From a virus: a stretch of 39,670 bases of DNA. The position numbers and the translations under genes are program-made. Positions within the stretch are counted from its first letter, which is position 1, and the number at the start of each line of letters is the position of its first letter. Where the stretch lies: UHGV virus genome UHGV-0120812; one strand, written 5' to 3'. A model generated the notes under the pieces. It saw only the letters and a program-made list of their open reading frames with translations, did no database searches and was not told the origin of the DNA. Below, piece by piece: positions 1-39,670 of this stretch.

Positions 1-49
1 TTGATTGGAATGGTGTTTTTTAGATGTGAGAAATATTTTACCCGCTATT

Positions 50-250
50 TTACCCATTGGCGCGGCTTAAGAGCTTATTTTTAAATTCACAATGGTCACG
101 ATATAACCATCTTGCTCGTCCGTGGATAACTTTGGCTTTAGGAAGGTCGCCGGACTTAATCCGGTCATAGATGAAGGTTTTACCAAAGCCAGTATCGGCC
201 ATGATGAATTTCAAATCAACCAGTGAATCAGGCTGTAGTTCGTGTTGCAT
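50..250 (-). CDS. torI: AlpA/TorI-family excisionase (recombination directionality factor)
   Basis: 66 aa MQHELQPDSLVDLKFIMADTGFGKTFIYDRIKSGDLPKAKV...; winged-helix AlpA-like pattern; recognised from memory as TorI-like of the E. coli KplE1 (CPS-53) prophage. Confidence 0.85.
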   Translation of the reverse strand: MQHELQPDSLVDLKFIMADTGFGKTFIYDRIKSGDLPKAKVIHGRARWLYRDHCEFKNKLLSRANG

Positions 251-824
251 GAGTGCTATCTCCGAATAGGGAATCGAACCTGCAAATCAGGCAATAAAAA
301 ACCGCCATCAGGCGTCTTGGTGTTCTTTCAGTTCTTCAATTCGAATATTGGTTACGTCTGCATGCGCTATCTGCGCCCATATCATCCAGTGGTTATAGCA
401 GTCGTTGATGTCCTCTGCTTCGATAACCCTGTCGAATGGCTCTCCATTCCATTCACCAGTGACTCGGAAGTGCATTTATCATCTCCATAAAACAAAACCC
501 GCCGTAGCGAGTTCAGATAAAAGAAATCCCCGCGAGTGCGAGGATGTTATTCATTGCCGATATTCACCTTTATCGCGAACACCTTTACCGGTTTATCACC
601 GAAGTGTGGATGTATGATTGTCTTGATTTCATACCCGTCATACGGGACGTCAATTCTACGGCTGGAATCGTCGCGCTTCGGATATCCCTTTGTGATAATC
701 AGACGGTCATATTCCCGGAACATAATTCGCTTATTCCAGTAGTCATTGCACAGGCGATACTCTTCCGTTTTCTCCCCCGCGAATCATGGCATCGAAGTAT
801 TCACCTTTGACGGCAAGTTGCAGG

Positions 825-1112
825 TTAGCCACGACCTTCCTCCTTTGGCTTGTGAATTTGTATCGTCATGCCGCTTTGAGTGGTGACTACAATGACAGAA
901 CCAGGCTGAAGGCTGTTAAGATTGAATGCTTCGTAAAACGAATCCAATGCCAGTGCTTTTTTATTCTTTCGGTTCCACCAACGCCATCCCTTGCTACAGG
1001 CTACACTGACAATCCACTGTCCACTCCTGTAAGCCATATAAAACCAGATGAGCAAAACCTGAAGAAATGCTATCCAGTCAATAATCGTATATTTCGCGAA
1101 GGAGTCCATCAC
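825..1112 (-). CDS. Hypothetical small membrane protein
   Basis: 95 aa with hydrophobic N-terminal segment (IIDWIAFLQVLLIWFYMAY); start overlaps the stop of the upstream gene (ATGA), suggesting translational coupling. Confidence 0.4.
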   Translation of the reverse strand: MMDSFAKYTIIDWIAFLQVLLIWFYMAYRSGQWIVSVACSKGWRWWNRKNKKALALDSFYEAFNLNSLQPGSVIVVTTQSGMTIQIHKPKEEGRG

Positions 1113-1606
1113 TTCACCTCCTGCGGCGGCTCCGGTAGCAGCATCCAGTGGGTTACACCGCCAATTGGCTCATCGTCGTCGTACTCCAATGCGGCTATAT
1201 AGAACCCGTCACGACGAGAATAAGAAATCCCTGACATTACAATGCCATCCGAAACAACAATAATGTCACCCGTTTCTTCCGGCATTCGCTCACTACAGCT
1301 TATCCAACCATCCGGAGTTACCGGCACTGGCTTGGCGGTATAAAGCGGTGTTATATCTGCCCGAAAATTACATGCTTTATGCAGCCGCACCCACCGTTCG
1401 ACTTCTGCTTTGTCAGAATACATACCAGTGAACGTGTTATATTCACGGTCAATTTGCGTGAATGTTACCTTCCACGCCACCGGCTCTGCTTCCAGCGATG
1501 CCAGTGCGATTTCATAAGCCCGACGCTCAATATTGTCTCGCACGTCCAGGCTGCCGATTCGCTCTTTGATTTCTTTAATCAGTTCTTTGTCGGTTAAAGT
1601 GGTCAT
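1109..1606 (-). CDS. DUF551-like phage protein
   Basis: 165 aa; C-terminal GGVTHWMLLPEPPQ matches the WMPLPEPP signature I associate with DUF551 proteins of lambdoid early-left regions. Confidence 0.7.
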   Translation of the reverse strand: MTTLTDKELIKEIKERIGSLDVRDNIERRAYEIALASLEAEPVAWKVTFTQIDREYNTFTGMYSDKAEVERWVRLHKACNFRADITPLYTAKPVPVTPDGWISCSERMPEETGDIIVVSDGIVMSGISYSRRDGFYIAALEYDDDEPIGGVTHWMLLPEPPQEVK

Positions 1607-1812
1607 TTGTTAATCCTCAAAACTTTATGCCCGGGCGCAAAAGCACGCGTTTTGTCTTTGCTTATTCGCCAGCCATCTTTGCGCGCCTCTTTTGCACAGC
1701 CAGCCCATGACGTACCGATATACTCACCGAAGTCTGGCGTTTGATATTTACCATTTGTACACTGGCGACAATCACAGTAGAGATGCATGGTGTAACTTGC
1801 GGCAATAGCCAT
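1603..1812 (-). CDS. Hypothetical Cys-rich small protein
   Basis: ORF-track ORF 1603..1863; internal start MAIAASYTMHLYCDCRQC... at 1812 preferred because the upstream ORF stops 1 nt before it. Start uncertain. Confidence 0.45.
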   Translation of the reverse strand: MAIAASYTMHLYCDCRQCTNGKYQTPDFGEYIGTSWAGCAKEARKDGWRISKDKTRAFAPGHKVLRINK

Positions 1813-1813
1813 A

Positions 1814-2002
1814 TCAGGCTCCTTTAGTGCGTAAGTGGTTTTTCCAGCGGTTTTGCGCCGCACTGGGCTTTTTGCAACAACTGTGCCCCATAACCCCGCA
1901 ACACCCCGTCAACCTCACTCGTCTGTTACTAATCCTCAACCATCGCCAGACCCCAACACCGTTTCTGCGAGCTAACAGAATCTTTGCCTTACGGTTTTTC
2001 AT
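1814..2002 (-). CDS. Hypothetical small basic protein (doubtful)
   Basis: 62 aa R/W-rich ORF, stop abutting the next start; composition looks atypical and it may be non-coding. Confidence 0.2.
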   Translation of the reverse strand: MKNRKAKILLARRNGVGVWRWLRISNRRVRLTGCCGVMGHSCCKKPSAAQNRWKNHLRTKGA

Positions 2003-2174
2003 CGCTTTGCTCTCCTGCGTTTCTTTGCTGCTCGTCGTGCCGCTGCAATACCAGTATGGCGGCGCTTTGGTGCCGGGATGATGTTGTCAGCCATCAGGAC
2101 ATGTGGCTTTGCAATTAGCGCAGAAGCCCAAAAACGAGTCGGGTACGGTAACAAGCCGATACATGCCACACGCA

Positions 2175-2729
2175 CTACTCACCTCCGTTGATGCGAATGC
2201 CTGTTGCAATGCTGTTTATGATGCTGTCAGTGCATGGGGTAGAAAGCTGGGCATCTCCAGCAATTTTCATGACATCAACATCTGCATATCGAATACCGAG
2301 GTGTATCAGACCGGCTATACCTGACTTAAGCCGAGCATTTTCCATAAACAGATCCTTTGCCCGCTGTTTTTCTGCCTCAAGCTCAACGCGCAGCTTCCCT
2401 ACCGTTAGCGCAATATCCTCGTTCTCCTGGTCGCGGGATTTGATGTATTGCTGGTTTCTTTCCCGTTCATCCAGCAGTGCCAGCACGGTAGCCGGATTGG
2501 CTGCAGCGATGAATTCAGCATTGGCCTGCTGTTCCATTTGGAAATCTTCATCGAAACCGCTTTCAGGATGCGCTCCTTCAATTCTGCAAATAGGAATATA
2601 TCCAGCAACTTCACGATGAATTAGCGCATCATCACCATCAAATCGGCTTTCTCCATATTCGAGCGACCACTCACCACACGTTGCTTTTTCTGCCGCTTCA
2701 CGCAGTGCCTGATAGTTAATTTTGGTCAT
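2175..2729 (-). CDS. Ead/Ea22-like early protein
   Basis: 184 aa MTKINYQALREAAEKAT...; N-terminal pattern and coiled-coil middle typical of Ead/Ea22-like proteins in lambdoid early-left operons (from memory). Confidence 0.6.
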   Translation of the reverse strand: MTKINYQALREAAEKATCGEWSLEYGESRFDGDDALIHREVAGYIPICRIEGAHPESGFDEDFQMEQQANAEFIAAANPATVLALLDERERNQQYIKSRDQENEDIALTVGKLRVELEAEKQRAKDLFMENARLKSGIAGLIHLGIRYADVDVMKIAGDAQLSTPCTDSIINSIATGIRINGGE

Positions 2730-2730
2730 A

Positions 2731-3030
2731 TCACATCACCCTGAAGCCGTTGCATTTACGTAAGAAATCGCAGATATAGCCCTTCATTTTTTCATGCCAA
2801 TCTCGATCATTCCCATTGCACCAACCATCAGGTGGAGTCCAGTTTTCTATCAGAGCAGCCATTTTCTTTGCTTTCGCCGGAGTAGCTGTTGCGGTATCGC
2901 AGTAATGACGAGTTTCAACCAACGCATCCATACCATCGATATCAAGTACGCAAAACCATGTGTGATTCGGCATTCCAACAGATGGTATTTGTTGCCCACG
3001 TCGACGTTTATCAATAAGACATACAGTCAT
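2731..3030 (-). CDS. Hypothetical protein
   Basis: 99 aa ORF, tightly packed in the leftward operon (2-nt gap to upstream gene). Confidence 0.55.
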   Translation of the reverse strand: MTVCLIDKRRRGQQIPSVGMPNHTWFCVLDIDGMDALVETRHYCDTATATPAKAKKMAALIENWTPPDGWCNGNDRDWHEKMKGYICDFLRKCNGFRVM

Positions 3031-3572
3031 GGTTCCACCTTCTCTATTTGCTTAAGACCGTCTCTCACTGCATTAAGTACGCGTTCCAGATACTGGTATT
3101 TCGGGTTTGGTGCCGTTGGCCAGTCGGCATACCATGGATCATCACCAAAGAGATTCAGCAGTTTGTTACCGACGCCGAAACAACAGCAGCTTTCTTTTAC
3201 GTCATCGGCGTTTTCCGCCTCGTCCCACATTTCGCGAGCCTGTACCGCGTCGATTTCTCTCTCTCTTCGTAATTTTATGATTTCTGACTTCACGAAAAGC
3301 AGATTTGCATCGTTGTCATCGTCGACCGTGCTTCGCAGTTGAGGGTCGAAATAGCCGATTAGATACTCGTTGCTGACCCGCTTAATGAACGTCTGCACAT
3401 CATCACCGCCCATAGCAAACCAAGCCGCAGTCCACGCTTTTCCGTAGCAGGTGATGGTGATTCTTCCCTTACCAGGTTCGTAGTTTTCAATCATCACTCG
3501 AACCGGATCTAGTCGCTCTGCACCGGTTATAACGAATGACAACACATCAATCTTTTCAACCGTTACACTCAC
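3027..3572 (-). CDS. Hypothetical protein
   Basis: 181 aa ORF starting with GTG that overlaps the stop of the upstream small ORF (GTGA). Confidence 0.6.
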
Positions 3573-3736
3573 TGGTTGCCTCCTTTGCGCAACATCGCAT
3601 TCAGATATTTGTTGTCGTTAACAGAACCGAAACTCTTTCTTTTAAGCAATTCCTCTCTCGATGGCATTGGCTTTACGCGTTGGCGAATAATCATTTCTGC
3701 CGGAAGAATGCCGGGATTGTATGCAAGTCCTCTCAT
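3569..3736 (-). CDS. Hypothetical small protein (55 aa, below the ORF-track cutoff)
   Basis: Hand translation: [55 protein letters not shown]; stop overlaps downstream GTG start. Confidence 0.35.
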
Positions 3737-3752
3737 GATTAATTCCTCTTTG

Positions 3753-4067
3753 TTAATTTATTTGTATGCCTGCTCTTTCTTCATCGAGTTTTTTTAGCTT
3801 GTATCGCATAGCCCTTACTGAATAAATTGAGCGGCAGGTTGCAATTGCTATTTCTTCTGCGGAGAACTTACCGAAAAGTGATACTTCGGCTCTTGTCCAG
3901 CGTCTTCCACGAAGTCGGCTAACAATGTCAGCGCCAATCCTTGTTGCTTTCGCCATAACTGCTTTTTCAGTCCTTTCCAGTTTTTCAGCGATAACTTCAA
4001 CTGGCATTGTCGCCGCCACTTCGCGCAAGAAATCGACTTCCCATTTCTCCCATGGAGTCTTTTTCAT
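3753..4067 (-). CDS. Hypothetical protein, possible duplicated helix-turn-helix
   Basis: 104 aa; two similar segments ([13 protein letters not shown]... and [20 protein letters not shown]...) suggesting a DNA-binding fold. Confidence 0.55.
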
Positions 4068-4078
4068 AGGCGATACCG

Positions 4079-4567
4079 TTATTTGATAAGAAGTGAAGGT
4101 TTCCCAACTTTGAGTTGAGCGCCGGGGATATTTATTCCTGCTTTTAGTTGGTGTTTGATTGCCAGTTTGTCGGCTTTAATTGTCGTTTCAAACTCAACGT
4201 ATTCAGGAGGAAGGGCGCTTGAGTCGATGATTTCTACAGTTTCTGACGGTTTGCGGATTGTTACCTGGTGAATACCTGCTCGAATCTTTTTCTTGCCAAC
4301 CATTTCAAGCGATGACGCTATATACGCCATAATGCTGTCAATCTTGTTTTGAATTACTGCGGCTCGCTCATTTAGTGACTTTGCCTCTTCCTTGAGGCGT
4401 TCAGCATAACCAGATTCATTTTTAATAATGGCAAGAAGTTGCTCTATTTTATCGGTAAATTCTCCTTCCATGCCTTCTATTGTGTCAGCAATCATCTCTG
4501 GTTCTAAATCTGAATCCATCAATTTTGCGTATTCATTGGCAATTTCATACAGTTTGCTCACTGGCAA
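4079..4567 (-). CDS. Gp157-like protein (tentative)
   Basis: 162 aa, acidic/coiled-coil, immediately downstream of the RecT-like gene, where siphovirus Gp157-family genes are commonly found. Confidence 0.5.
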   Translation of the reverse strand: MPVSKLYEIANEYAKLMDSDLEPEMIADTIEGMEGEFTDKIEQLLAIIKNESGYAERLKEEAKSLNERAAVIQNKIDSIMAYIASSLEMVGKKKIRAGIHQVTIRKPSETVEIIDSSALPPEYVEFETTIKADKLAIKHQLKAGINIPGAQLKVGKPSLLIK

Positions 4568-5447
4568 CCTCCAGTTTCGCTTTGCATTCTATGTAAATGG
4601 CTTGTACGTTCTGCTGCAATTTCATTCCAGATGTCAGGCGATATGCTTCTGCAAAATATCGCTTCAAATCGTCCATGTTTTCTGCCTGAGCCATTTCATC
4701 GCAAAGAAGTTGTGCTTTATCCATTATTTCCTGCTGGCGTTTCCGTTCATCTTCGCGGATATCTTCCTCTGATTTGTGCGGCATAACTGGTTCCTGATGC
4801 ATACCTTCATCTTCGTTAAGAAGGTGAATGGCATTATCCAGTCTCTGGGCTTTAGGCCAGTATTTGCTGGCGCGTTTAACTATTGTTTTACGCGCCATCT
4901 CTTCCCAGAATGTTTTCCACGGTCCATTCTTTGCCTTGCTCGTTGCTTCCACAGCTTTAATTTCTGCCAGACTCATTTCTTCAGTCAGGTAGTCACCATC
5001 TGCTGTTTTAACCGTGCAATAACCTCCAACAATAGAGCCTCGCTCACCAAATGCGTTGTATTTGTGGGTTGGTGCTGAATCAAGGCCATTTGATTCATAG
5101 GTGTCGTTTGAGTACACCAGTTTGCATTGCCCCCACTTAATTGATCCTGTCGATTGCGCAAGATGAAGTAATCCCATGTAACTGATATCAAGGCACACCA
5201 TGCCGTCGCGAGGAACCAGATAAGCCAGTTTGCTGGCCGGGTTTAAGGTGATGCCGATCGCCGCAACATTGATGATGGCGTTCTGTGCGCTGGTTGGATT
5301 TGCCAGTGCTGTTTTAGCCAGGTAATCGTTTTTCTGGAAATACTGAATTGCAAACTGGCTTTCCTTAGCCCATGTCACCGTCTGTTCAGTCAATGCTCCG
5401 CAGAATAACTGCTCCTGCTGTTTAACGAATTCAACGATATTGCTCAT
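4545..5447 (-). CDS. recT: RecT-family single-strand annealing protein
   Basis: 300 aa; GPWKTFWEEMARKTIVKRASKYWP resembles the RecT motif GPWVTHWEEMAKKTAIRRLFKYLP. Confidence 0.8.
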   Translation of the reverse strand: MSNIVEFVKQQEQLFCGALTEQTVTWAKESQFAIQYFQKNDYLAKTALANPTSAQNAIINVAAIGITLNPASKLAYLVPRDGMVCLDISYMGLLHLAQSTGSIKWGQCKLVYSNDTYESNGLDSAPTHKYNAFGERGSIVGGYCTVKTADGDYLTEEMSLAEIKAVEATSKAKNGPWKTFWEEMARKTIVKRASKYWPKAQRLDNAIHLLNEDEGMHQEPVMPHKSEEDIREDERKRQQEIMDKAQLLCDEMAQAENMDDLKRYFAEAYRLTSGMKLQQNVQAIYIECKAKLEVASEQTV

Positions 5448-5755
5448 GCAGCTTCTCCAAAAATGTGTCTGCGTTTGAATATTGCGAAGGCATATTCAGC
5501 CTTAACTCTTTCGGTTATTGCATCCCAGAACCATTCAGCGGCTTTTTCCTGATAGTTACAGTCATCATCTTCCAGCCAGTCGATAGCGTCCTTAGTGTGT
5601 TCATCTGGTTTATATGAGCGAAGCATTTCGCTTATTGGGTCGCAACGTTTGCAGAGGCGATCAACTTCACTGTTGATTCGTTCGTAATCTTCATCAGTAA
5701 AACTTGCGATTATTTGCGATATTTCACGCTTATCATTCAGAGTCAGAATCATCAT
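5444..5755 (-). CDS. Hypothetical acidic protein upstream of RecT
   Basis: 103 aa ORF overlapping the RecT start by 4 nt; occupies the position where lambdoid phages carry Gam/Kil/Abc-type genes, but no similarity recognised. Confidence 0.55.
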   Translation of the reverse strand: MMILTLNDKREISQIIASFTDEDYERINSEVDRLCKRCDPISEMLRSYKPDEHTKDAIDWLEDDDCNYQEKAAEWFWDAITERVKAEYAFAIFKRRHIFGEAA

Positions 5756-5836
5756 CTTTCTCCTGTTCTTTGTGCTGATTGAGCATTTTGTTCATCTGAC
5801 GAATGAATTCTTCGTCTGACCAGTTATCTGTAAAAC

Positions 5837-6007
5837 TCATGGACGGCCTTGTTGTTTCAAAATATCCCAAAGCTTTTCGAGCAAACTTTTCATTCTTGGT
5901 TGTTTAAAGTCTGCTCCGGTTAAAATATTTTTTCGTGAATGCTGTACCGATAAAATCGGGTTGAAAGGGCGAACCGATGCCGCCCCTGCAATAGCGAACT
6001 GTTGCAT
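5837..6007 (-). CDS. cIII: CIII-like protein (FtsH inhibitor)
   Basis: 56 aa from internal ATG with AAGGAG RBS 7 nt upstream: MQQFAIAG...MKSLLEKLWDILKQQGRP, resembling lambda CIII (MQYAIAG...LLERITRKLRDGWKRLIDILNQPG). Confidence 0.6.
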   Translation of the reverse strand: MQQFAIAGAASVRPFNPILSVQHSRKNILTGADFKQPRMKSLLEKLWDILKQQGRP

Positions 6008-6190
6008 AGGATGCTCCTTCTGTTTGATTGCATAACGAAAACGCCTCGAGTGAAGCGTTATTGGTATGCATATAAAAAGGCCCTCACACTGGAGGGCAAA
6101 GAAGATTTCCAATAATCAGAACAAGTCGGCTCCTGTTTAGTTACGAGCGACATTGCTCACATAGCAGACTCGTAAATCTGCTATAGGCGC

Positions 6191-6349
6191 TTATTCGCAT
6201 CGCATGACAACATCAAATTTTTCGAGATTACTTTGTCGCAACAATCCTTCTTCTACGCGGTCAGCTTTTCTATAATTATCAAATTCGAAATGTTTAATTA
6301 CTTCTTTTGTTCCTCGCTCTATAACTTCAACAATGTATTTCTTATTCAT
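6191..6349 (-). CDS. Hypothetical small protein (52 aa, below the ORF-track cutoff)
   Basis: Hand translation MNKKYIVEVIERGTKEVIKHFEFDNYRKADRVEEGLLRQSNLEKFDVVMRCE; ATG overlaps the stop of the upstream gene (ATGA); AT-rich. Confidence 0.4.
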   Translation of the reverse strand: MNKKYIVEVIERGTKEVIKHFEFDNYRKADRVEEGLLRQSNLEKFDVVMRCE

Positions 6350-6645
6350 CATTCTTCCCCAAGAGCTTTTCTGATTGCTGCAAGACCTTTATTAACAGCT
6401 CCATACCATTCTGGATATGTTGTCGTTGTTCTATTTTTGGTTTGCTTAAGTAATAACTGAAGTGCTTCGAGAAGGTCAGGTGCTGCCGCTATTAGATTGG
6501 CATCTTCAATGCATTGAACTTCCTCACAGATTGCAATATACGAACGCCAGCCTGTGCCATTTTCAAGTGAGTCTGCCTGGATGATTTTAATCTCATCGCC
6601 ATCCATCATTATTTCCCACTTACCTTCAGTACCTTTAAATTCCAT
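6349..6645 (-). CDS. Hypothetical protein
   Basis: 98 aa ORF in the AT-rich block between N and cIII-like. Confidence 0.55.
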   Translation of the reverse strand: MEFKGTEGKWEIMMDGDEIKIIQADSLENGTGWRSYIAICEEVQCIEDANLIAAAPDLLEALQLLLKQTKNRTTTTYPEWYGAVNKGLAAIRKALGEE

Positions 6646-6682
6646 GTTAGCCTCTGTTGTTTATGCCAAAAATAAAGGCCGA

Positions 6683-7306
6683 CTATGCGGCCTCGGAAGG
6701 AAGTCCAATCATCTTATTCAAATCTTCTACCCGTAAAGCAGGAAGTGCTGTACTTGCTTTATCTGCTTCTTTTGGTAGCAACTCTTTGCTTTCAGGCCAA
6801 ACCTCAATAAGTCGCTTAACTGTTGTGACTGAGTTTAAAGCAGCCCATACATTTGATTCGATATCCTTTTTCTTTGCTTCAAGTTTTTGTTGTAATGAGC
6901 AGATTTCATCAAACCTTTTTGTTATTTCGTGCTCTGCGTCAAACATGCATTTATCTTTTGTCGGAGTAGGGAGCAATATATCTTCGCCGTTGCCGTCTTT
7001 CCCATATGAATGCCAGCCAACCCTTCTTCCAGATACAGTCAGATAAATCGAAGTAGAACGAACATCGCATGAGTAAAATGAACATCCCATCTTCTCAAGT
7101 TCTTCACTTATAGCTGCTAACTTGGATGATAACCGATCCACTTCCTCAGTTTTCTTTTTACCGCCAAACGCAATAACTCTGGCGTCAAGTGCAAGCTGGT
7201 TCTTTAACTTTGTTACTTCTTCAAGCTCAGTGAAAACCCCAGACTTAATTAAAGCGTTACGAGCGATTTCCTCTTTCATTCTCGTAGTTAAGCGGATTGA
7301 TGACAT
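6683..7306 (-). CDS. Hypothetical protein (207 aa)
   Basis: Start chosen at MSSIRLTTRMKEEI... (GAGG RBS about 8 nt upstream) rather than the ORF-track start at 7321; coiled-coil-rich; AT-rich. Confidence 0.55.
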   Translation of the reverse strand: MSSIRLTTRMKEEIARNALIKSGVFTELEEVTKLKNQLALDARVIAFGGKKKTEEVDRLSSKLAAISEELEKMGCSFYSCDVRSTSIYLTVSGRRVGWHSYGKDGNGEDILLPTPTKDKCMFDAEHEITKRFDEICSLQQKLEAKKKDIESNVWAALNSVTTVKRLIEVWPESKELLPKEADKASTALPALRVEDLNKMIGLPSEAA

Positions 7307-7342
7307 ATTAATTCCTCTCAAATAAGAAAATAAAGGCCACCA

Positions 7343-7594: not shown

Positions 7595-7602
7595 ATCTCA
7601 CC

Positions 7603-7929: not shown

Positions 7930-8125
7930 CTGGATTCTCCTGTCAGTTAGCTTTGGTGATTGGATGGCCGGCGCTGAACCCCGGCTTACTGGTTAGAGCG
8001 CCCGCACTACCAGTGACGCTGTCTTGAGGCGCAGATTGGTTACTGCTTGCCATGAGCGCTGTTTATACATTGGTCGAGCATCAGCCTGCTCATTCATCCA
8101 ATCCCAAAGCCTTCTGCTTTGAATG

Positions 8126-8158: not shown

Positions 8159-8197
8159 TCACCTTCATGGTGGTCAGTGCGTCCTGCTGATGTGCTT

Positions 8198-8443: not shown

Positions 8444-8452
8444 AGGAATTAA

Positions 8453-32473: not shown

Positions 32474-34317
32474 TGAAAGTAACTGCAAACGGTAAGACAT
32501 TTACCTTTCCTGATGGTACGAGCACCGAAGATATTGGCACCGCCATTGATGAGTATTTTGCTGGTCAGGCTGTTCAGCAACAAACAGTTAATCAGGCCAA
32601 TAATGCACCAACACGGGAAGAACCATCATTGATGCAACAAGCTGGCGATTGGCTCACTGGTGGTCAAAGTGCAGGGCAAATTGCGGAACAGGCTGGTCGT
32701 GGTCTGGTAAACATACCATTTGACGTATTGCAGGGCGGCGCAAGTCTGATTAATGCAATCAGCCAGGGGCTTGGTGGCCCCAAGGTTTTGGACGATGTCT
32801 ATCGTCCAGTCGATCGACCAACAGACCCTTATGCGCAAGCTGGAGAAACAATTGGCGGGTATTTAGTTCCAGGAGTTGGAACGGCAGGAAGCATGGCTAT
32901 TGGATCACTGGCAGAGGCCGCAAATCAGAAAGGCGATTTCGCACAAAATGCAGCTAAAAATGCCGGAGTTAACCTTGCCGCTCAGGGGGTTCTTTCCGCA
33001 GCAGCAAAGGGAATATGGCGTGGAATAACGGCTATAAAAGGTGATATTGCGCCAGAAGTGGCGAAGAAAATTGCCACATCAGAATCGATGGGCGTGACAC
33101 CAATGACATCTGATGTTATCCCGCCGAAAAATGCTTTCACTCGCGGCCTAACTCAGGATGCCGAGGGGGCTTTGCTCGGGACAGGCTCAAAGCGAGCGGA
33201 GCAATATGCAACGCGTAGTAAGCTGGTAAGTAATTATTTTGACCGTTTTGGTGAGTACAACCCTGATGATGTGGTGAAATCTCTTACCACCACGTTAAGG
33301 GGGCGGAAGGATGCCGCTGGCGCTGTTATCAATGACGTCACCAATAAAATGGGTAATGCCGCAGTTGATACCACAAATACCATGAATGCTCTGAATACAG
33401 CGATCGCAAGACAGGAACGGCTTGGGACGTCTGCCAATCAAAGCCTGCTTACATCCTTGCGTAACCTACGTGAAGAATTAGCAAACCCTGCAACTGATTT
33501 GGATGTTACGTTTGATCTCTTGCGTCAGCACAGAACAGCATTTAGATCTAATGTTCAGGGAGATGCTATGGTCTTCCCAAACCAGGCAAAAGCAGCTACC
33601 AATATGGTAGAGAATGCAATGTCAAAAGATCTTCGTAACGCAGTTGCAAAAAACCTCGGTGCATCAGACGCAGCAAAATACCTTAAAGCAAATTCCGATT
33701 ATGCAAACGTTTATAATAAGGTGCTTAATAAAAACATTGCTAACAAGCTCAACAAGGCAAGCAGTGAAGCCAGTCCTGAACTTATAAATACCGTTGTATT
33801 AAGCAGAAAACCATCTGACGTGAAACGAATCTGGAGCGCATTGGATAATAAAGGGAAAGATGCTATGCGTGCAGCTTATGTCAGCAAAATAGCGGAAAAG
33901 GCCGGTGACTCTCCAGCCAAGTTCATCACTGAAGTTAATAAGCTGAAATCTCAGTCAGGCGGTGAAATTTACAACACTATTTTTTCTGGAAAGCACATGA
34001 AAGAGCTTGATTCTCTTCATGAAGTTCTACAGCAAACAGCAAGGTCAGACACCGCAAATGTAGTAACTCAGACGGGGCAATCGCAAGCCAACAGGATAAG
34101 GACGATTGGCGCAACTGCGACTCTTGGCGTATCAATGGGGCTTGAGGCTGGTTTCGGTGCAATGATGCGCTTGTATGAGTCAAAAGCAGCAAGGAATGCT
34201 CTCTTACGTTTGGCAAACACCAAAGCAGGAACACCAGCCTATGAAAGAGCGCTAAATAATGCTGCAAATGCGATACGCCCTATACTTTCAAGCCAAATTA
34301 CAGCAGAACAGCAATAA
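32470..34317 (+). CDS. Ejection protein (P22 gp16-like)
   Basis: 615 aa ORF at the gp16 position and of similar length. Confidence 0.8.
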
Positions 34318-34330
34318 AAATAAGATATAA

Positions 34331-34816
34331 CTATCTGATATTACTGCTACTGTTGCATGTTACCGTGTTTCCAAATCCTGAATTGCAGTTTGTATATGTG
34401 TCAACGCGTGTTGGGTAAGGTTGAGTTATAACAGGCTGGCGCGCTTTTTGCTCGATCGCTTGCATTGTGTTTACAGCCTGATAATTCAATAAAGCCTGCT
34501 GGAATGCTTGGCTTTGTGCTATTTGTTGTGCTTGTTCTTGGCTTTGTAATTGAACATAAAGATTCTGAAGTTCAAGTCTTGCCTGTGTGTCACTTATCTT
34601 GCCTTCATCGACACCTTGCCCGAGCATCTTCGCAGCAAGGACATACAGCTTAGGTGTTGGTGCTGATGCCATGCGAGAGTCGTTCTTCAAGCTGGCATCA
34701 AGGCAATTAGCCATATCGCTAAGCTTTGGATAGCGTTGCTCGCAACTTGCCTGATAGTCGCTTACTTTTGCGCACCCAGCCAGCAGAAGCGGGATAATTA
34801 ACAGTGATTTTTTCAT
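34331..34816 (-). CDS. Lipoprotein, accessory gene (candidate superinfection-exclusion or conversion factor)
   Basis: 161 aa from MKKSLLIIPLLLAGC (signal peptide plus LAGC lipobox); Q-rich helical middle; convergent with gp16. Confidence 0.65.
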   Translation of the reverse strand: MKKSLLIIPLLLAGCAKVSDYQASCEQRYPKLSDMANCLDASLKNDSRMASAPTPKLYVLAAKMLGQGVDEGKISDTQARLELQNLYVQLQSQEQAQQIAQSQAFQQALLNYQAVNTMQAIEQKARQPVITQPYPTRVDTYTNCNSGFGNTVTCNSSSNIR

Positions 34817-34850
34817 ATAATTAACTCTCCTTAGTTTTGCGCAGGATACC

Positions 34851-35216
34851 ATGAAAAAAGTTAACATTGGAAACGTACCAAAGATGCTCGTTCCGCTCTT
34901 TGAGAGCGGTACAATTGTGTTTTGTAGAGACTTTCCAGAATGGCAACGCCTGCATCAAAAACTTGGCGTTGACGTGCATGACTCGGACGCCAACGGAGCG
35001 TCTCATACAATGAGTAGCGAGAATGGTGTTTTGCATGTGATAGGCGTGTTCAATGGCAAACTATCTACTATTGCCCATGAGTGCGCTCACATGGCATTCG
35101 ATATCTGCTCAAGGGTAGGTGTTGATGTTGAACCAGGAAGAGCCAACGAGACTTACTGCTACTTAATGAGCAGGCTTGTTGAGTTCTGCGAGCGACATAT
35201 CAAAAAGCCGGAGTGA
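34851..35216 (+). CDS. Hypothetical protein with HExxH motif (possible small zinc metallopeptidase)
   Basis: 121 aa; AHECAHMAFD contains HExxH; divergent from the lipoprotein gene across a 34-bp gap. Confidence 0.55.
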   Translation: MKKVNIGNVPKMLVPLFESGTIVFCRDFPEWQRLHQKLGVDVHDSDANGASHTMSSENGVLHVIGVFNGKLSTIAHECAHMAFDICSRVGVDVEPGRANETYCYLMSRLVEFCERHIKKPE

Positions 35217-35229
35217 CCCGGCTTGATTA

Positions 35230-35409
35230 TTACTTTTTGCTGTCTGGAGTTCGCTTATCCAATACCCAGCCATGACCTGGCTTTGTTGTTGGTGGAAGCC
35301 TTTCGTTGTCCTTGACGGTTGCAAAATTGTCTTTCTTACCGCCGCGTGGGCCAACTTCTTGGTATATTCCGCCGTTTTTTCCTGTGTTTTCACCTGGTTT
35401 TTTCGCCAT
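35230..35409 (-). CDS. Hypothetical small Gly/Lys-rich protein
   Basis: 59 aa MAKKPGENTGKNGGIYQEVGPRGGKKDNFATVKDNERLPPTTKPGHGWVLDKRTPDSKK; GAGGT RBS 7 nt upstream; hairpin plus T-run downstream. Confidence 0.45.
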   Translation of the reverse strand: MAKKPGENTGKNGGIYQEVGPRGGKKDNFATVKDNERLPPTTKPGHGWVLDKRTPDSKK

Positions 35410-35508
35410 GATATACCTCAACATACACCCGTTATTGGGCGATTAAATATTGATCTCATTTTATAAGTAGTCAATATGGCCCAGGTAAATGCAAAAATTA
35501 ACCCACCT

Positions 35509-35760
35509 TCAGGTGGGTTTTTTGTACAAATCCTTCAGCGTATCAAACACCATCTTCTTAACAAGCTCTGACTGCTCATCAGCGATGCGTTCCGCATCGT
35601 CTCGATAGCCTGAAATTTTGGATGGCTTTGATACAGCATCAGTCACTATCTGAACTAATTCTGAATTAAGAGAGCGGCCATTGGATTTGGCTCGCTGTTT
35701 TAGTTTTTCCTTTAATTCGTAAGGTAGCCGCAGATTAAATTGCGGGTCATCTCTTCCCAT
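35509..35760 (-). CDS. mnt: Mnt repressor (ribbon-helix-helix, Arc/MetJ family)
   Basis: 83 aa; DDPQFNLRLPYELKEKLKQRAKSNGRSLNSEL...YRDDAERIADEQSELVKKMVFDTLKDLYKK resembles P22 Mnt. Confidence 0.85.
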   Translation of the reverse strand: MGRDDPQFNLRLPYELKEKLKQRAKSNGRSLNSELVQIVTDAVSKPSKISGYRDDAERIADEQSELVKKMVFDTLKDLYKKPT

Positions 35761-35820
35761 TCTTGATGCCTCGCTTTTGTGAGTGGATCGGCATCTTATT
35801 ATCTGCTGATTGCATCCTCA

Positions 35821-35841
35821 ATAAGACCACGGTGGTCGTAT
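35821..35841. promoter_or_regulatory. Mnt-operator-like palindrome
   Basis: ATAAGACCACGGTGGTCGTAT, a near-perfect 21-bp palindrome with the CACGGTG centre, between mnt and the tailspike gene. Confidence 0.65.
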
Positions 35842-35907
35842 TTTTTTGATTAATAATGCATCACTGCGGCAATGCTGCGGCGATTCCTTGTATCTGGAGC
35901 AAATTAA

Positions 35908-38046
35908 ATGACAGACATTACAGCCAATGTTGTAGTGAGCATGCCTTCGCAACTCTTCACTATGGCGCGTTCTTTTAAAGCCGTAGCTAATGGCAAAATT
36001 TATATCGGTAAAATTGACACTGACCCGGTAAATCCTGATAACCAGATTCAGGTCTATGTTGAGAACGAAGATGGTTCTCACGTTCCTGTTGCACAGCCAA
36101 TCGTCATCAATGCCGCTGGGTATCCAGTATATAACGGACAGATTGCCAAGTTCGTAACTGTGCAAGGCCATTCTATGGCTGTTTATGATGCGTATGGTAC
36201 ACAGCAGTTCTATTTTCCGAATGTGCTGAAGTATGACCCTGATCAACTACGGCAGCAATTAGAAGACCCGGATGGAGCTAAAAAATATCCTGAATTGCAG
36301 ATATCTCGGTGGAGGGACGATTGTGATGTAAGAGGGTGGGGGGCAAAAGGCGATGGTATAACAGATGATACATCTGCATTGATCTTGGCTGCAGAATATG
36401 CACGAGAATCATCCAGAACATTACGAGCGGAAGGTAATTTTATTATTACGGAGACATTAAATCTTCGTAATGTCAGCCTCGAAATGACCAATGCTGTTTT
36501 TACCATATCCCACTCAGGAATAGGGGTATTGCTTGGCGGGAATGCATCAAACCCTAACAACCCAAGACAAAACTTCGGAACGATTATCAGAAATTCTGGT
36601 ATTTCATCTGAAACGACACCGGATATTCGTATTATCGGGGCAAAAGGGCAGCATATAAACATTGAGCGTTGCGACTACTTACAGTTATATGCAAATTATA
36701 ATGCTTCGGTGGCATCGACGGATTATTCAATAGCATACTCAACCTTTAACCTGAAAAAGGTCGATACAATTCATTTTCTTGGAGTTGAGAAAGGATGGAT
36801 AAATGAAAACTATTTTTATCTGAATCGTACGAATAATATCATTTTCGCTGATAATCCATATCATCATAACCACAATAAGTTTTATGGTGGAACTATGGAG
36901 GGGGCAGGTAAAATTGATATTCAAAGAGGTGATAACAATTACTTCTACGGGTTTCGTTTTGAACGATATCCATCATCCCCAACTAACCAACAGTTGATAA
37001 TTAACTTTGGTGAATATACGTGGAATAACTCAATTGAAGCTACATGGCTTTCATCTCCTGCGTATACAAATGAGCCATACAATCCATCGCCTTACACTTA
37101 TGTCGAGGTAACTGATAATGGCAAGGGGAATGCAGTATTTCATATTCAGGAAAATATATCCGATGAAGTAACATTGTTTTCTTTAAATGCTAACACCCCA
37201 TTTATATCCAGTGCTAACAATGGAGAAGTTGGTGCATTAGCATATCAAACAGATGTTGATGGTTTATATAATATCCGTCACCTGGTTTCTTCTAAGTTTG
37301 CTTTTATGCGGAATTTTGGGTTGTTATGGGAATCTGGAGATGTACCAGTAAGAAATGGTGATATGTTTACATTCTCAGCAGATACGGCATCGTTTCGCAT
37401 TTACCTGTATGCATTAGATAGAGATGGGAATGTCATAACCTCACAAACAGAAGCCATAACTTCTTCTATGCAATGGGATTCTGCCAACCATAGGTATGTC
37501 ACTGCTGTTAATATTTCTTCCATTAAGATCAGGATTAATAATGAAGGGGTTCCAGTTAGTGCAATTCGTTTAGCTGTGTATTCTGGTGGTAATGTAGTGA
37601 ATACTGCATTTTCATGGCTATGCTTTACTGGTAGATATTACAAAAATAGCACATCCTTACCAAGGAAAAGTAAAAATACTTTTACTTTAAAACAAGGGAA
37701 AGCACTTACTTATTATAGTGATACTGATATTAGTATGGCTAACATTGGTTCAGGAATTACCTGTTATAAAACCGATTTATCTGAACTCAAAATTAATCTT
37801 GTAAGGGGCAGGTATGTAGTGAAATCGATTTCAGGTAGTGAAATATATGTATACCAAGGAACAATCACTTATTACCCTCCACTCAGTGATATCAAATTGG
37901 TATATACGGATGGGATTGAAAATAAATTATTAGATGTGCAAAGCATCTCTTCAGGAAAGATTACTCTTGCAGATACAGTACCATCAGCTATATCTGCAGG
38001 CGATTTTGTAGATGTTATTGTTACAAAGACGAAATCTATTTTATGA
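35908..38046 (+). CDS. Tailspike: P22-type head-binding domain plus divergent beta-helix-like receptor-binding domain (candidate polysaccharide depolymerase)
   Basis: 712 aa; first ~113 residues [43 protein letters not shown]...NVLKYDPDQ match P22/HK620 tailspike N-termini; remainder unrelated to P22 and AT-rich. Confidence 0.9.
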
Positions 38047-38080
38047 TGTGTTTATTTATCCTTATGTTAAAGGAGCGATA

Positions 38081-38368
38081 ATGGATATAACACCTTTCCT
38101 TCATGCGTTTTGTGCTGTGGCTGCGCAGGTACTGATTGGTCTTTTTACCGGAAACTGGGCTTACGGTGCGATAGCCGGTTGTACGTTCTTCATTGCGCGT
38201 GAACACACCCAGGCAGAATATCGCTGGACAGAAAGGTTTGGGAAAGGGAAACGTATCAACATGCCGTGGTGGGGCGGTTTTGATCCGCGCGTGTGGGATG
38301 TGGGAAGTCTGTTGGATTTTTCTTTCCCAATTATCGGATGCTTATTGGTATGGATTCTTGCATCGTAG
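38081..38368 (+). CDS. Hypothetical small membrane protein between tailspike and integrase
   Basis: 95 aa from MDITPFLHAFCAVAAQVLIGLFTGNWAYGAIAGCTFFIA...; AAGGAG RBS 7 nt upstream; two predicted TM helices. Confidence 0.6.
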   Translation: MDITPFLHAFCAVAAQVLIGLFTGNWAYGAIAGCTFFIAREHTQAEYRWTERFGKGKRINMPWWGGFDPRVWDVGSLLDFSFPIIGCLLVWILAS

Positions 38369-38462
38369 CGAACACATAATTACCGATGAAACAAAACTGA
38401 GACACACAAAGCTTTGCACTGGATTGCAAGGCTTTGTTCTCTTCGATAGTGGTTAAGGTGGA

Positions 38463-39620
38463 TTACTCCACCTTTTCATCAATCCAGTCAGCCCACCACT
38501 GCATCATTTCTCTGCGCTTATCGAGATACTGAGCATGGTTGTAAATTCCGCGCACAGATCCGCCGTTGGCATGTGCCAGTTGCACTTCAATAGCATCAGC
38601 GGGCCATTCGTGCTCGTTCATAATCGTGCTGAATTCATGCCTGAATCCGTGACCGCTTTCCAGACCCTCATAGCCTATTTGTTTGATCACAAGCAATACC
38701 GCGTTCTCGCAGATTGGCTTCTTCTTATCGTTGCGCCCGGCAAAAACAAACTCTGATACTGGTTTGGTGATGGAGCTTAGCGTAGTGAGAAGTTCAATAA
38801 CCTGGTCCGACATCGGAACCACATGAATCTTGCGTCCCTTCATCACATTGGCGTCGATGGTGATAATCCCGTTTTCAAAATCGACGTTCTTCCATAGCAT
38901 GGAACGAAGCTCTTTTGTTCTGAGGGCTGTGTAGCGTAAAACTTTGGTCGCAATGAGCGATACGATACTTCCTGAAAATGTTGCCAGTGCTTTGTTGAAT
39001 GCCGGGATCTGGTCTGCTGGAAGAAACGGGAAGTTCTTCTTGCGGTATCCCTTCATGGCGTCAGCAAGGTCAGGTGCCGGGTTGTATTTAGCCCTTCCGG
39101 TGACAATAGCGTAACGGAAAACTTCGCCGCATCTTCTGCGGGCTTTGTTGGCTCGCTCCATTGCACCGCGATCTTCAAACCTGCGGATTACTTCCAGCAG
39201 TTGCATCGGCTCAATATCCTGAATCTCAAGACCGCCGATGATGGGTAAAATGTCGTCATCAAACATTTTGGCAAGTTCAGTCGCATACCCTACTGACCAT
39301 ACTTGCTTCTTGTGCTCGTACCATTCTTTGTAAATCGCACTAAAGGAATTGTTGTTAGACGAAGCCTTTTTCGCCTTTACCGGATCGATGCCAACCGAGA
39401 TGTCTTTCCTCGCAGTCCATGCCTTATCCCTTGCCTCCTGCAAAGTCATTAGCGGATATTTTCCTACGGTCAGGACTTTCTCCTTACCGTCAATCTTGTA
39501 GCGAAGCTGCCATACCTTTTTCCCTGATACAGGGACATAAAGGTACAGGCCATTACCATCGAGTAGGCGGTATGGTTTTTCTTTCGGCTTAGCTGCTTCA
39601 ATCTGCTTAACGGTGAGCAT
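38463..39620 (-). CDS. intS: Tyrosine integrase, P4 family (N-terminal arm-binding domain)
   Basis: About 385 aa from MLTVKQIEAAKPKEKPYRLLDGNGLYLYV...; C-terminal HGFRHEF and VQLAHANGGSVRGIYNH catalytic motifs; resembles KplE1 IntS as recalled. ORF-track GTG at 39656 is an alternative start. Confidence 0.9.
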   Translation of the reverse strand: MLTVKQIEAAKPKEKPYRLLDGNGLYLYVPVSGKKVWQLRYKIDGKEKVLTVGKYPLMTLQEARDKAWTARKDISVGIDPVKAKKASSNNNSFSAIYKEWYEHKKQVWSVGYATELAKMFDDDILPIIGGLEIQDIEPMQLLEVIRRFEDRGAMERANKARRRCGEVFRYAIVTGRAKYNPAPDLADAMKGYRKKNFPFLPADQIPAFNKALATFSGSIVSLIATKVLRYTALRTKELRSMLWKNVDFENGIITIDANVMKGRKIHVVPMSDQVIELLTTLSSITKPVSEFVFAGRNDKKKPICENAVLLVIKQIGYEGLESGHGFRHEFSTIMNEHEWPADAIEVQLAHANGGSVRGIYNHAQYLDKRREMMQWWADWIDEKVE

Positions 39621-39665
39621 GGGTAAAAATCCGGTGGGTAAAATTATTTTATCCACTTTTTACCC
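39621..39665. promoter_or_regulatory. Clustered GGGTAAAA/TTTTACCC motifs upstream of int (candidate Int/RDF binding sites of the att region)
   Basis: GGGTAAAAA at 39621..39629, GGGTAAAA at 39636..39643, inverted TTTTTACCC at 39657..39665; TTTTACCC recurs at 36..43 and 48..55. Confidence 0.5.
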
Positions 39666-39670
39666 GTCAT

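Follow-up and report, generated by a model that had tools for sequence, protein, structure and literature searches.

The 39,670-nucleotide (nt) stretch of DNA analysed here, referred to below as the window, is one strand of UHGV virus genome UHGV-0120812 and covers the interior of a prophage. It encodes 65 open, close-packed open reading frames (ORFs), is 92% coding and has a G+C content of 47.3%. The ORF map is canonical for lambdoid phages, with the order int-xis...rec...N-cI-cro-cII-O-P-nin-Q-lysis-virion genes. A minus-strand early-left operon extends from N (7603-7929) down to xis (50-250), the cI-cro switch lies at 9586-10600, and the early-right, late, lysis and virion genes occupy the plus strand up to 38046. 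The complete set of thirteen virion genes lies in syntenic order at 20426-38046 (terS-terL-portal-scaffold-coat-gp4-gp10-gp26-gp14-gp7-gp20-gp16 ... tailspike), with homologues in P22, Sf6, HK620 and CUS-3. ORF lengths agree with those of homologues, and no insertion sequence (IS) elements are present. We consider it very probable that the window represents a temperate lambdoid prophage, intact in appearance, that is P22-like (Lederbergvirus) and belongs to the argW-integrating class, and that it is a new combination of known modules that arose by lambdoid recombination. Its lambdoid character is evident in the divergent cI and cro genes with tripartite OL and OR, in the N/nut and Q/qut pairs and in the gene order, and its P22-like character in the syntenic virion cluster and a P22-type tailspike head-binding domain.

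The window was aligned locally, with blastn and tblastn, to lambda, P22, Sf6, HK620, HK97 (right arm only), CUS-3, K-12 KplE1, Kapi1, JEP4, Gally and two E. coli prophages (MB1159 and WWCOL-236). Each half was also compared by megablast with 50,697 phage records and 5,426 complete E. coli genomes. Proteins were annotated with Pfam, PHROGs, PADLOC and tblastn. A tRNA scan found no tRNA in the window, and no Rfam family was detected in it at gathering thresholds. All 20 small or unannotated ORFs scanned against PHROGs fall in existing families. Among ten accessory proteins run through PADLOC, the sole match was a Dam-like methyltransferase (orphan methyltransferase models); none was obtained for the protease, lipoprotein, Nmad5, orf95 and gp66 proteins described below.

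Megablast returned hundreds to thousands of partial matches per half, to lambdoid and P22-like (Lederbergvirus) phages, and every segment of the window has relatives at nt identity of at least 90%. A first-pass annotation had proposed a mosaic genome in which lambda-type immunity, N, Q, nin and lysis modules are joined to P22-type virion modules and a KplE1-type int/xis pair. The whole-window blastn and tblastn comparison bears out this mosaic, with kilobase alignments at E = 0, and refines its labels. The lambda-type assignment of N, cI, Cro, CII, Q, S, R and the operators is confirmed (91-100% amino acid (aa) identity, with one base of OR1 the sole operator change), but several of the lambda-type labels could be replaced as well or better by HK97-, CUS-3- or Sf6-type. 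The nin region is not lambda-type but HK97/HK620-type, and within the lysis module S and R are lambda's while Rz and Rz1 are P22/Sf6/HK97-type. The terS, terL, portal and coat genes are P22-like in family, in order and in TerL (92% aa identity), but portal, scaffold, coat and gp4 are of the CUS-3 subtype.

The immunity switch illustrates this refinement. The cI repressor gene (9586-10299, minus strand) encodes a protein matching lambda cI at 233 of 237 positions and those of HK97 and CL707 at 99%; it keeps the Ala-Gly cleavage site and the catalytic Ser and Lys. OR3-OR2-OR1 with PRM and PR (10310-10373; PR hexamers TTGACT-17-GATAAT) is identical to HK97 OR. No difference from lambda was seen in OR2, OR3, OL1-3 or the nutL and nutR boxB sequences. 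OR1 (10357-10373) has one central base changed from G to A relative to lambda (TACCTCTAGCGGTGATA versus TACCTCTGGCGGTGATA), and HK97 carries the same allele, which indicates that the immunity region belongs to the HK97/CL707 lineage of lambda immunity, not to lambda's own. The region is 99% identical in nt sequence to that of CL707. Cro (10400-10600, plus strand) is identical to lambda Cro at 66 of 66 residues. It is followed on the plus strand, within 10624-11012, by nutR boxB (10624-10640), cII (10719-11012) with the pRE CII site (10728-10741), and an oop-type terminator on the minus strand (10961-10988). CII matches lambda at 95 of 97 residues and CUS-3 at 100%. The CII sites at pRE (10728) and paQ (17069) are those of lambda, and PL, PR, Timm and the oop terminator occupy lambda-equivalent places. 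By its cI, Cro and operator sequences, the window is thus a member of the lambda immunity group. Lambda immunity occurs on many chassis, including HK97, SfI, mEp332, HK542, HK544 and CL707.

The control elements flanking the switch are similarly conserved. N (7603-7929, minus strand) is 91% identical in aa sequence to lambda N, 93% to Sf6 gp37 and 99% to CL707 N, and its N-terminal arginine-rich motif is exactly that of lambda. Upstream of it, at 8127-8260, are nutL boxB (8127-8143) and OL1, OL2 and OL3 with PL (8200-8260; hexamers TTGACA-17-GATACT), all as in lambda and oriented leftward (minus strand). On the late side, the Q module (16782-17516, plus strand) comprises the Q antiterminator gene (16782-17405), the paQ CII site (17069) and PR'/qut (17457-17516). 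Q is identical to lambda Q at 206 of 207 residues and 98% identical to P22 gp23, and 58 of the 60 bases of PR'/qut are as in lambda.

In the virion cluster, a P22-type terminase is joined to a procapsid module of the CUS-3 subtype. The terS and terL genes (20426-22394, plus strand) are 88% identical to P22 in nt sequence, with TerL 92% identical in aa sequence to P22 gp2; the terminase of CUS-3 itself is unrelated to this pair. The procapsid and head-completion genes encoding portal, scaffold, coat, orf62 and gp4 (22394-27523, plus strand) are 95-100% identical to CUS-3 in aa sequence (portal 99%, scaffold 98%, coat 95%), and the block is contiguous at 94-96% nt identity with CUS-3, Kapi1, JEP4 and MB1159. 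Identities to P22 are only 35% (portal), 29% (coat) and 41% (gp4), with no tblastn match for scaffold; to Sf6 they are 56% (portal) and 32% (scaffold), with no match for coat.

The change from P22 to CUS-3 homology occurs at 22351/22356, 38 nt before the terL stop. The last 12 codons (22356-22391) encode the same tail as ends the unrelated, Sf6-family TerL of CUS-3 and Kapi1; P22 TerL ends in IPAPIRPVRRGR and Sf6 TerL in ETEIYVPSSSGW. We examined this tail in 232 IMG/VR contigs (loci L037-L276) retrieved by three portal types. The last 12 TerL residues track portal type, not TerL family, in all 232 contigs, which are non-independent, and physical linkage alone favours co-inheritance of tail and portal. 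All 80 contigs with a CUS-3 portal have a DYSSY[NS]IPCGVG-like tail, on P22-family TerL in 16 and on Sf6-family TerL in 64. All 73 with a P22 portal have a IPAPIRPVRRGR-like tail (59 P22-family and 14 Sf6-family TerL), and all 79 with an Sf6 portal have an EIYVPSSSGW-like tail (79 Sf6-family TerL). P22 TerL without residues 483-499 is unable to bind the procapsid portal (PMC5290284). From this result and the covariation of tail and portal, we infer that the exchanged tail probably acts as a portal-docking peptide that travels with the portal gene. A basic, proline-rich TerL tail has been stated to be conserved across all P22-like phages (PMC5290284); phages whose portal is of the CUS-3 or Sf6 type are exceptions to this.

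The tail genes draw on other relatives. Gp10, the gp26 needle (Sf6-type, knobbed), gp14 and the ejection proteins gp7, gp20 and gp16 are encoded at 27533-34317 (plus strand). Gp10 is 98-99% identical to Sf6 and HK620, and the needle is 80% identical to that of Sf6 over its full length. Compared with P22, identities are 93% for gp10, 91% for gp14, 83% for gp7, 74% for gp16 and 76% for Mnt, which is encoded farther downstream. The tailspike gene (35908-38046, plus strand) combines a head-binding domain (aa 1-113; PF09008, E 4.5e-67) with a swapped receptor-binding domain from about 36246, and the solved Sf6 and P22 head-binding domains in PDB match tailspike residues 1-118 only. The receptor-binding domain has a G+C content of 38%, versus 47% for the prophage, and matches phrog_18162. 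At the megablast level it is absent from isolated phage records, no solved homologue was found by sequence, and an exact 42-mer of it has no match in GTDB representative genomes. The domain occurs together with orf95 (38081-38368, plus strand; phrog_1443), which encodes a 95-aa small membrane protein, in 10 IMG/VR contigs at 95-99.5% identity, none of them identical. In Gally, JEP4 and siphoviruses, homologues of orf95 are located 3' of tail-fibre or tailspike genes. The receptor-binding domain and orf95 (36246-38368) travel as a unit, and three contigs (L010, L012 and L018) share 36340-38320 only, without the P22-type head-binding domain.

Replication genes are a further composite. An accessory gene, orf90 (11035-11307, plus strand; phrog_2519), lies between cII and O; its product is 99% identical to CUS-3, and it is also found in Kapi1, JEP4, Gally, MB1159 and WWCOL-236. 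The O-type initiator gene (11310-12257, plus strand; 99% aa identity to CUS-3 O) contains the predicted origin at 11737-11900, which consists of eight 12-nt CCGCACATGAAG-like iterons in two groups of four, translated as PHM-type peptide repeats, and then an AT-rich tract. Lambda iterons are absent from the O gene. The C-terminal 42% of O is 94% identical to HK97 O and 58% to P22 gp18, and the origin sits exactly at the mosaic joint between the CUS-3-type N-terminal domain and the HK97/P22-type C-terminal domain. The adjacent gene (12254-13630, plus strand) encodes a DnaB-type replicative helicase of the P22 gp12/HK97 gp55 type, for which tblastn found no match to lambda P. The first-pass description of the replication genes as P22-like fits the helicase (90% identical to P22 gp12), but CUS-3 (100%) and HK97 (99%) are the better comparison. 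The cII-orf90-O-P block is 99-100% identical to CUS-3 and unbroken at 97-99.6% nt identity in CUS-3, JEP4, Gally, Kapi1 (from 10950), MB1159 and WWCOL-236. This continuity across relatives indicates that the cII/initiator junction is old and widely shared.

The nin region (13703-16785, plus strand) comprises orf68, ninB (a divergent allele), a Dam-like methyltransferase gene, ninE, ninF, roi, a DUF1364 gene, rusA and ninH. From the methyltransferase gene through ninE, ninF, roi, DUF1364, rusA, ninH and Q (14353-17505), it is 96.9% identical to HK97 in nt sequence. NinE and NinF, at 91-95% identity, are the only lambda-like nin products, and lambda ninC, ninD, ninG and ninI are absent. The ninB/Dam part (13600-14950) is bridged by Stx phages and mEp213. 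The lysis cassette (18074-19291, plus strand) encodes the S holin (106 of 107 residues identical to lambda), the R transglycosylase (155 of 158; no match to P22 gp19), and Rz with embedded Rz1. Rz is 96% identical to Sf6 and HK97, 88% to P22 and 57% to lambda, and lambda homology stops inside Rz at 19102. Between lysis and packaging lie three accessory ORFs (19279-20396, plus strand), namely orf50, a PF13876 gene and a DUF2560 gene. The PF13876 gene (19670-20050; N4 gp49/Sf6 gp66 family) is the one gene carried by a clean 413-nt insertion at 19637-20049. Among the 12 references only Sf6 has this insertion (97.8% nt identity); the rest are contiguous here, their flanks separated by one base only. 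In appearance it is a moron-type insertion.

The two ends of the window define the integrated orientation. At the left, xis (50-250, minus strand) encodes the 66-aa recombination directionality factor TorI, which is 100% identical to HK620 HkaC and Sf6 gp18 and, at 66 of 66 residues, to TorI of K-12 KplE1. At the right, int (38463-39620, minus strand) encodes an IntS tyrosine integrase identical to K-12 IntS at 380 of 385 residues and 97-99% identical to those of HK620, Sf6 and CUS-3. DNA at 1-300 is 97.7% identical to KplE1, and the total KplE1 overlap with the window is 1.7 kb. Base 1 aligns with Sf6 position 18139 and base 39670 with position 17988, and the Sf6 attP core (18099-18114) lies between them. 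With xis at the left, int at the right and the Sf6 alignment flanking the attP core, the window is best read as a prophage in the integrated orientation. It ends 24 nt and 110 nt short of the att core on its two sides; its edges lie about 50 nt outside the first and last genes, and the att cores and host flanks fall outside. The recombination genes are nearly identical to those of KplE1, as previously annotated, but the module is standard for Sf6, HK620, CUS-3, Kapi1 and other argW (pro)phages. The argW (pro)phages KplE1, HK620 and Sf6 are known to share their recombination module, with excisionases that are 100% identical (PMC3509656).

A hairpin terminator downstream of int (about 38392-38425) contains TTGCACTGGATTGC, a 14-mer shared with lambda at 27484. 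This 14-mer resembles a CII-binding site (TTGC-N6-TTGC), and the lambda copy is downstream of lambda attP. We considered TTGCACTGGATTGC at 38414 as a CII-activated promoter and rejected it: it is the stem of the terminator hairpin 3' of int, and the same 14-mer is at lambda 27484. The terminator is on int's side of the attachment site and stays linked to int in the prophage, so integration-dependent, lambda-style sib retroregulation cannot apply.

The early-left operon between xis and N is largely accessory. Its "ea" region (308-3736, minus strand; assigned by tblastn, Pfam and PHROGs) carries a lambda p35 homologue, orf58, DUF4752 and DUF551 genes, three small ORFs, Ead/Ea22, orf99, orf181 and a DUF2737 gene. 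It is the most finely mosaic part of the window, and its segment 1600-2200 also occurs in phiV10 and Stx phages. The recombination module (3753-5755, minus strand) encodes orf104, a Gp157-family protein (PF05565, E 1e-36), RecT (4545-5447; PF03837, E 2.5e-33) and orf103. It is 92-94% identical in nt sequence to Kapi1, Gally and MB1159, and contains no Erf, Abc, Bet, Exo or Gam. A cIII-like gene (5837-6007, minus strand) encodes 56 aa starting MQQFAIAG; it was identified by comparison with lambda CIII and has the same coordinates as a PGAP gene in WWCOL-236. Between this gene and N, at 6191-7594 (minus strand), are orf53, orf98, an Nmad5-family gene (6683-7321; PF18757, E 7.7e-71) and orf83, assigned by PHROG matches. 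Kapi1 and WWCOL-236 also carry the Nmad5 (nucleotide-modification-associated domain 5) gene, and no partner genes for modification were found close to it.

Where the modules meet was examined through the ends of blastn alignments (at least 85% identity over at least 150 nt) to the 12 references, which gave 229 ends in 85 clusters. Of these clusters, 56 are intergenic or within 40 nt of a gene end, against a random expectation of 18.6 +/- 3.8. The remaining clusters fall at known domain joints, in the O iterons (11738-11883), between the N-terminal part and knob of gp26, in gp20 and gp16, and in the tailspike (36245-36374). The first-pass annotation had placed module boundaries at accessory ORFs, and the three junctions it gave as examples are all found. 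Between cII and the initiator, lambda homology ends at 11008, just before orf90. Between Rz and terS, breakpoints at 19283, 19454, 19636, 20050 and 20398 surround orf50, the gp66-family gene and DUF2560. Between gp16 and mnt, they fall at 34332, 34827, 35520 and 35760, around the lipoprotein gene, hkcC, orf59a and mnt.

Short conserved islands may have served these exchanges. Four islands are kept at identities of at least 85%: ninE/ninF at 14891-15228 (in 11 of 11 reference phages), 19511-19636 (10 of 11), 6101-6158 (10 of 11) and the DUF2737 segment 3588-3740 (8 of 11). They are 58-340 nt long, have variable or non-homologous DNA on both sides, and are where alignments end most often (as many as 13 ends at 15057). 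Their behaviour is like that of the "boundary sequences" marked in the records of Sf6 and CUS-3. It is plausible that they are substrates for homologous exchange. The tracts shared with lambda are 94-98% identical in nt sequence and total 5.3 kb, and on this similarity would allow homologous exchange with lambda. Cognate partners always lie within the same exchanged block: repressor and operators, N and nut, Q and qut, the O N-domain and iterons, the O C-domain and helicase, the TerL tail and portal, and integrase and excisionase. Such blocks are what selection on random recombinants is expected to leave. P22-like phages are recognised as a mosaic P22 branch of the lambdoids (PMC2629481).

Several slots at these junctions hold genes that are presumably expressed from the prophage. 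The "ant moron" region (34331-35760) carries a predicted lipoprotein gene (34331-34816, minus strand), hkcC (plus strand), orf59a and mnt (both minus strand), with bidirectional terminators at 35205-35224 and 35500-35519. The genes sieA, arc and ant are absent from the window and only mnt remains. This slot is hypervariable, and other variants of it similarly lack genes (PMC2629481). SieA is recognised as a multi-pass inner-membrane protein with an FxRYPxEAxxFNK motif and homology to types A to C (PMC10883804). We considered the gene in the sieA slot (34331-34867) as SieA, including types B and C, and rejected it: it has no BLASTP match to P22 SieA, no such motif and no hydrophobic segments. 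Read from Met18, it encodes a 161-aa predicted lipoprotein with a MKKSLLIIPLLLAGC lipobox that belongs to phrog_6067. Gally (94.7% nt identity) and the MB1159 prophage carry this gene too. Expressed from the prophage, it may act at the cell surface or in exclusion.

The cI-N interval is a recognised hotspot, occupied by rexAB in lambda and by bstA in BTP1 (PMC8585504). No tblastn or blastn match to lambda 35825-37114 (rexAB) was found in the window, and the interval from cI to Timm holds one gene in place of rexAB. This rex-slot gene (8469-9470) and the Timm terminator (8419-8440) occupy 8419-9470 on the minus strand, and homology to lambda, HK97, MB1159 and CL707 is broken at 8438-8443 and 9582-9590. 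The gene encodes a 333-aa predicted serine protease of the ClpP/SppA-fold "SDH family". Its Pfam matches (PF01972 and ClpP) are weak, and it matches phrog_21683 over its full length. Comparison with PDB sequences gave a marginal match only, and NCBIfam scores are far under cut-offs. In an AlphaFold (AF2) model (predicted local distance difference test score 75, core >90) the nearest folds are SppA, the 1510-N stomatin protease and ClpP. The protein belongs to a large, uncharacterised family of proteins of about 330 aa, with more than 1,500 homologues in Enterobacterales, Bartonella, Neisseria, Pasteurellaceae and others. Invariant among 30 aligned homologues are CKSAGT (Ser79), GEHQR (His181) and PSHGFVIDRKEA (His217, Asp222), and the alignment shows that the family has a charged, disordered tail.

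The genomic setting of the homologues varies. In Klebsiella Rac-like prophages (RacR-type repressor) and in Bartonella (S24-type) a homologue lies 79-99 nt downstream of the repressor gene in the same direction, and the repressors are unrelated; in Mannheimia and Neisseria it is solitary in the chromosome. The exact OL-protease-cI-OR arrangement was found in 10 of the 5,426 complete E. coli genomes, and each lambda-immunity wild phage compared has a different rex-slot occupant. By analogy of position with RexAB and BstA, we tentatively suggest, as the less favoured of the possible outcomes, that the protease may be a new functional module, co-transcribed with the repressor and serving either an anti-phage (abortive infection or exclusion) or a lysogeny-control function.

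The assignment as an intact-looking P22-like lambdoid prophage has to be weighed against other explanations and against some features of the data. Because the window shares IntS/TorI with cryptic KplE1 and lacks arc, ant, sieA, kil and rexAB, it might be a defective, decaying cryptic prophage like K-12 KplE1/CPS-53 that is kept for host-beneficial genes. This seems improbable. The missing genes are non-essential and are absent too from viable HK620 and Sf6, and the similarity to KplE1 is confined to the 1.7 kb noted above. All 65 ORFs are open in a sequence that is 92% coding and free of IS elements, every essential lambdoid and P22-like function is encoded at full length, with lengths as in functional homologues, and the size of 39.7 kb is typical of P22-like phages (HK620 38.3 kb, Sf6 39.0 kb, CUS-3 40.2 kb).

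It is very unlikely that the window is one of the phages whose sequences have already been described, such as CUS-3, HK620, Sf6, Kapi1 or JEP4, even with relatives at 90% nt identity or more for all segments in public records. No phage record among the 50,697 covers at least 80% of either half. Coverage of the left half stays below 80% in every one of the 5,426 complete E. coli genomes, and for the right half a single genome, that of ST131 strain MB1159, reaches 89%. The fraction of identical bases across the window, a rough blastn estimate and not a VIRIDIC value, is 73% for MB1159, 51% for Kapi1, 48% for JEP4, 45% for CUS-3, 28% for HK620, 27% for Sf6, 26% for P22 and 13% for lambda. Pairwise similarity within the mosaic Lederbergvirus is often below 70%, the genus level being about 70% or more. 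The MB1159 prophage, at 73%, is unclassified, and the classified relatives are lower. The longest partial relatives include the WWCOL-236 prophage, which matches 2363-13693 (11.3 kb: ea, rec, N, protease, cI, cro, cII, O and P) at 99.6% but has a different integrase, and JEP4, which is collinear over 10.8 kb from terS to gp20 (20432-31272). The best IMG/VR contig for terS-gp4 reaches 98.3% identity over that region only. The first-pass annotation had named a known sequenced phage with this same architecture as the finding that would overturn its view, and no record shows the exact genome. The distinctiveness it implied is not supported, as the IntS/TorI pair is the usual module of argW (pro)phages and the same module combination already exists in the argW prophage of E. 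coli ST131 MB1159.

An assembly artefact, in which reads of several lambdoid prophages collapsed into a chimeric contig, is least likely of all: E. coli genomes match the window at a median of 2-3 places and up to 16, a known source of misassembly, and many junctions are in repeats common to several prophages, but each junction is bridged by a long collinear alignment in at least one independent finished genome or phage, namely WWCOL-236 (2363-13693), CUS-3/JEP4/Gally (10702-13658), HK97 (14353-17505), lambda (16772-19102), Sf6 (17833-20398), JEP4 (20432-31272), MB1159 (20399-36245) and IMG/VR contig L017 (35872-38523), and the gene order is canonical with no function duplicated or missing.

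Some observations do weigh against reading the window as an intact, argW-integrated P22-like prophage. Neither the P22 pac sequence (within 5 mismatches) nor a kil gene was found in the window, and its cIII-like gene is a divergent one. Integration at tRNA-argW would follow from the IntS/TorI identity and the xis-left, int-right layout only, and inducibility and plaque formation are predicted by homology alone. The breakpoint test used 12 related, non-independent references, and its alignment ends partly reflect local conservation, not crossovers.

If the prophage is functional, its life cycle, here reconstructed by homology at every step, would be as follows. In the lysogen, lambda-specificity cI bound at OL1-3 and OR1-3 would keep PL and PR off, and the PRM transcript would include the protease gene as far as Timm. 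Upon SOS induction, RecA-stimulated autocleavage of cI would free PL and PR. N, acting at nut sites with boxB identical to lambda, would extend early transcription, and CII at the lambda-identical pRE and paQ sites could direct the choice of lysogeny. TorI and IntS would excise the prophage. For replication, the CUS-3-type O may bind the 12-nt iterons in its own gene, with its HK97/P22-type C-terminal domain recruiting the DnaB-type helicase. Q at the lambda-type qut would turn on the late operon, and lysis would be brought about by lambda-type S and R with Sf6/HK97-type Rz and Rz1.

Virion assembly would similarly mix components. The predicted particle would be built with CUS-3-type scaffold and coat, Sf6/HK620-type gp10, needle, gp14 and gp7, mixed gp20 and gp16, and the tailspike. 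P22-type TerS/TerL would carry out headful packaging, with TerL docking on the CUS-3-type portal via its 12-residue tail from the portal module. Gp4, gp10 and the knobbed Sf6-type needle would close the head, and gp7, gp20 and gp16 would be ejected at infection. On the tailspike, the conserved head-binding domain would present a horizontally acquired receptor-binding domain that sets the polysaccharide receptor. The mosaic itself could have formed by recombination among co-infecting or resident lambdoids, partly at the short conserved islands, with selection retaining joints at gene and domain boundaries.

Overall, the element is not a new kind but textbook lambdoid modularity, and its mosaic genome is one more case of what has been documented for P22, HK620, Sf6, CUS-3, HK97 and epsilon34. 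It is a well-resolved example of lambda immunity specificity on a podovirus chassis, and of a P22-family terminase fitted to a CUS-3-type portal by the swap of only a 12-residue tail, the putative docking peptide. Three prophage-expressed accessory slots (rex, sieA and downstream of the tailspike) hold uncharacterised genes that are candidates for exclusion or defence, and the potential for discovery is limited to such accessory genes at module junctions.

Comparison with known systems places each part of the element. Like lambda, it has cI, Cro, operators, N/nut, CII and its sites, Q/qut, S and R of lambda type; unlike lambda, it has no siphovirus head and tail genes, no lambda int/xis, red, gam or rexAB, and neither the lambda O N-domain with its iterons nor lambda P. 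With P22 it shares a one-to-one virion order, hkcC and orf59a (98-99%), and TerL, gp10, gp14, gp7, gp16, Mnt, helicase and Q. P22 differs in having c2 immunity, gene 24 instead of N, Erf/Abc, gp19 lysozyme, the immI genes arc and ant, sieA, gtrABC, and another int/xis with its att site.

HK620 and Sf6 resemble the element in IntS/TorI (97-100%), in an attP between int and xis, and in gp10, gp14, gp7, the Sf6-type needle and the head-binding domain. Sf6 also shares N (93%), the Dam gene and the segment from lysis to DUF2560 that includes the gp66 insertion (97-98% nt identity), and HK620 shares roi to Q (94.6% nt identity). Both differ in immunity (434-like in Sf6, its own type in HK620), in O and P (22-31% identical), in having Sf6-type terminase, portal, scaffold and coat, and in the receptor-binding domains of their tailspikes. 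HK97 has the same OR1 allele, together with the O C-terminus and helicase at 97.5% and nin to Q at 96.9% nt identity, and CL707 matches N-OL and cI-OR-cro at 96.5-99% nt identity.

CUS-3 (CP000711), a K1-specific phage, shares cII, orf90, O and P at 99-100% aa identity, portal, scaffold, coat, orf62 and gp4 at 95-100%, gp10 at 98%, IntS at 99%, S/R/Rz at 95-100%, and the C-terminal tail of TerL. It differs in its P22 c2-like repressor and Cro, another N, Sf6-family TerS/TerL, Erf instead of RecT, a phage-21-type Q, an antirepressor and an endosialidase tailspike. The prophage of MB1159 (NZ_CP174273.1, about 1556966-1599102; O25b:H4-ST131) departs from the window in a P63C-domain gene in its rex slot, a disrupted N, inserted IS1 and IS3 elements, the nin region, Q (phage-21-like in MB1159), the receptor-binding domain of the tailspike and much of the ea region. 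It is alike in having TorI at one end and IntS beside tRNA-Arg at the other, lambda-type cI, cro and cII (98.5% nt identity), orf90, O and the DnaB-type helicase, and the P22-type arrangement from terS/terL via a CUS-3-type procapsid to the tailspike head-binding domain, which extends over 15.8 kb at 96.3% nt identity.

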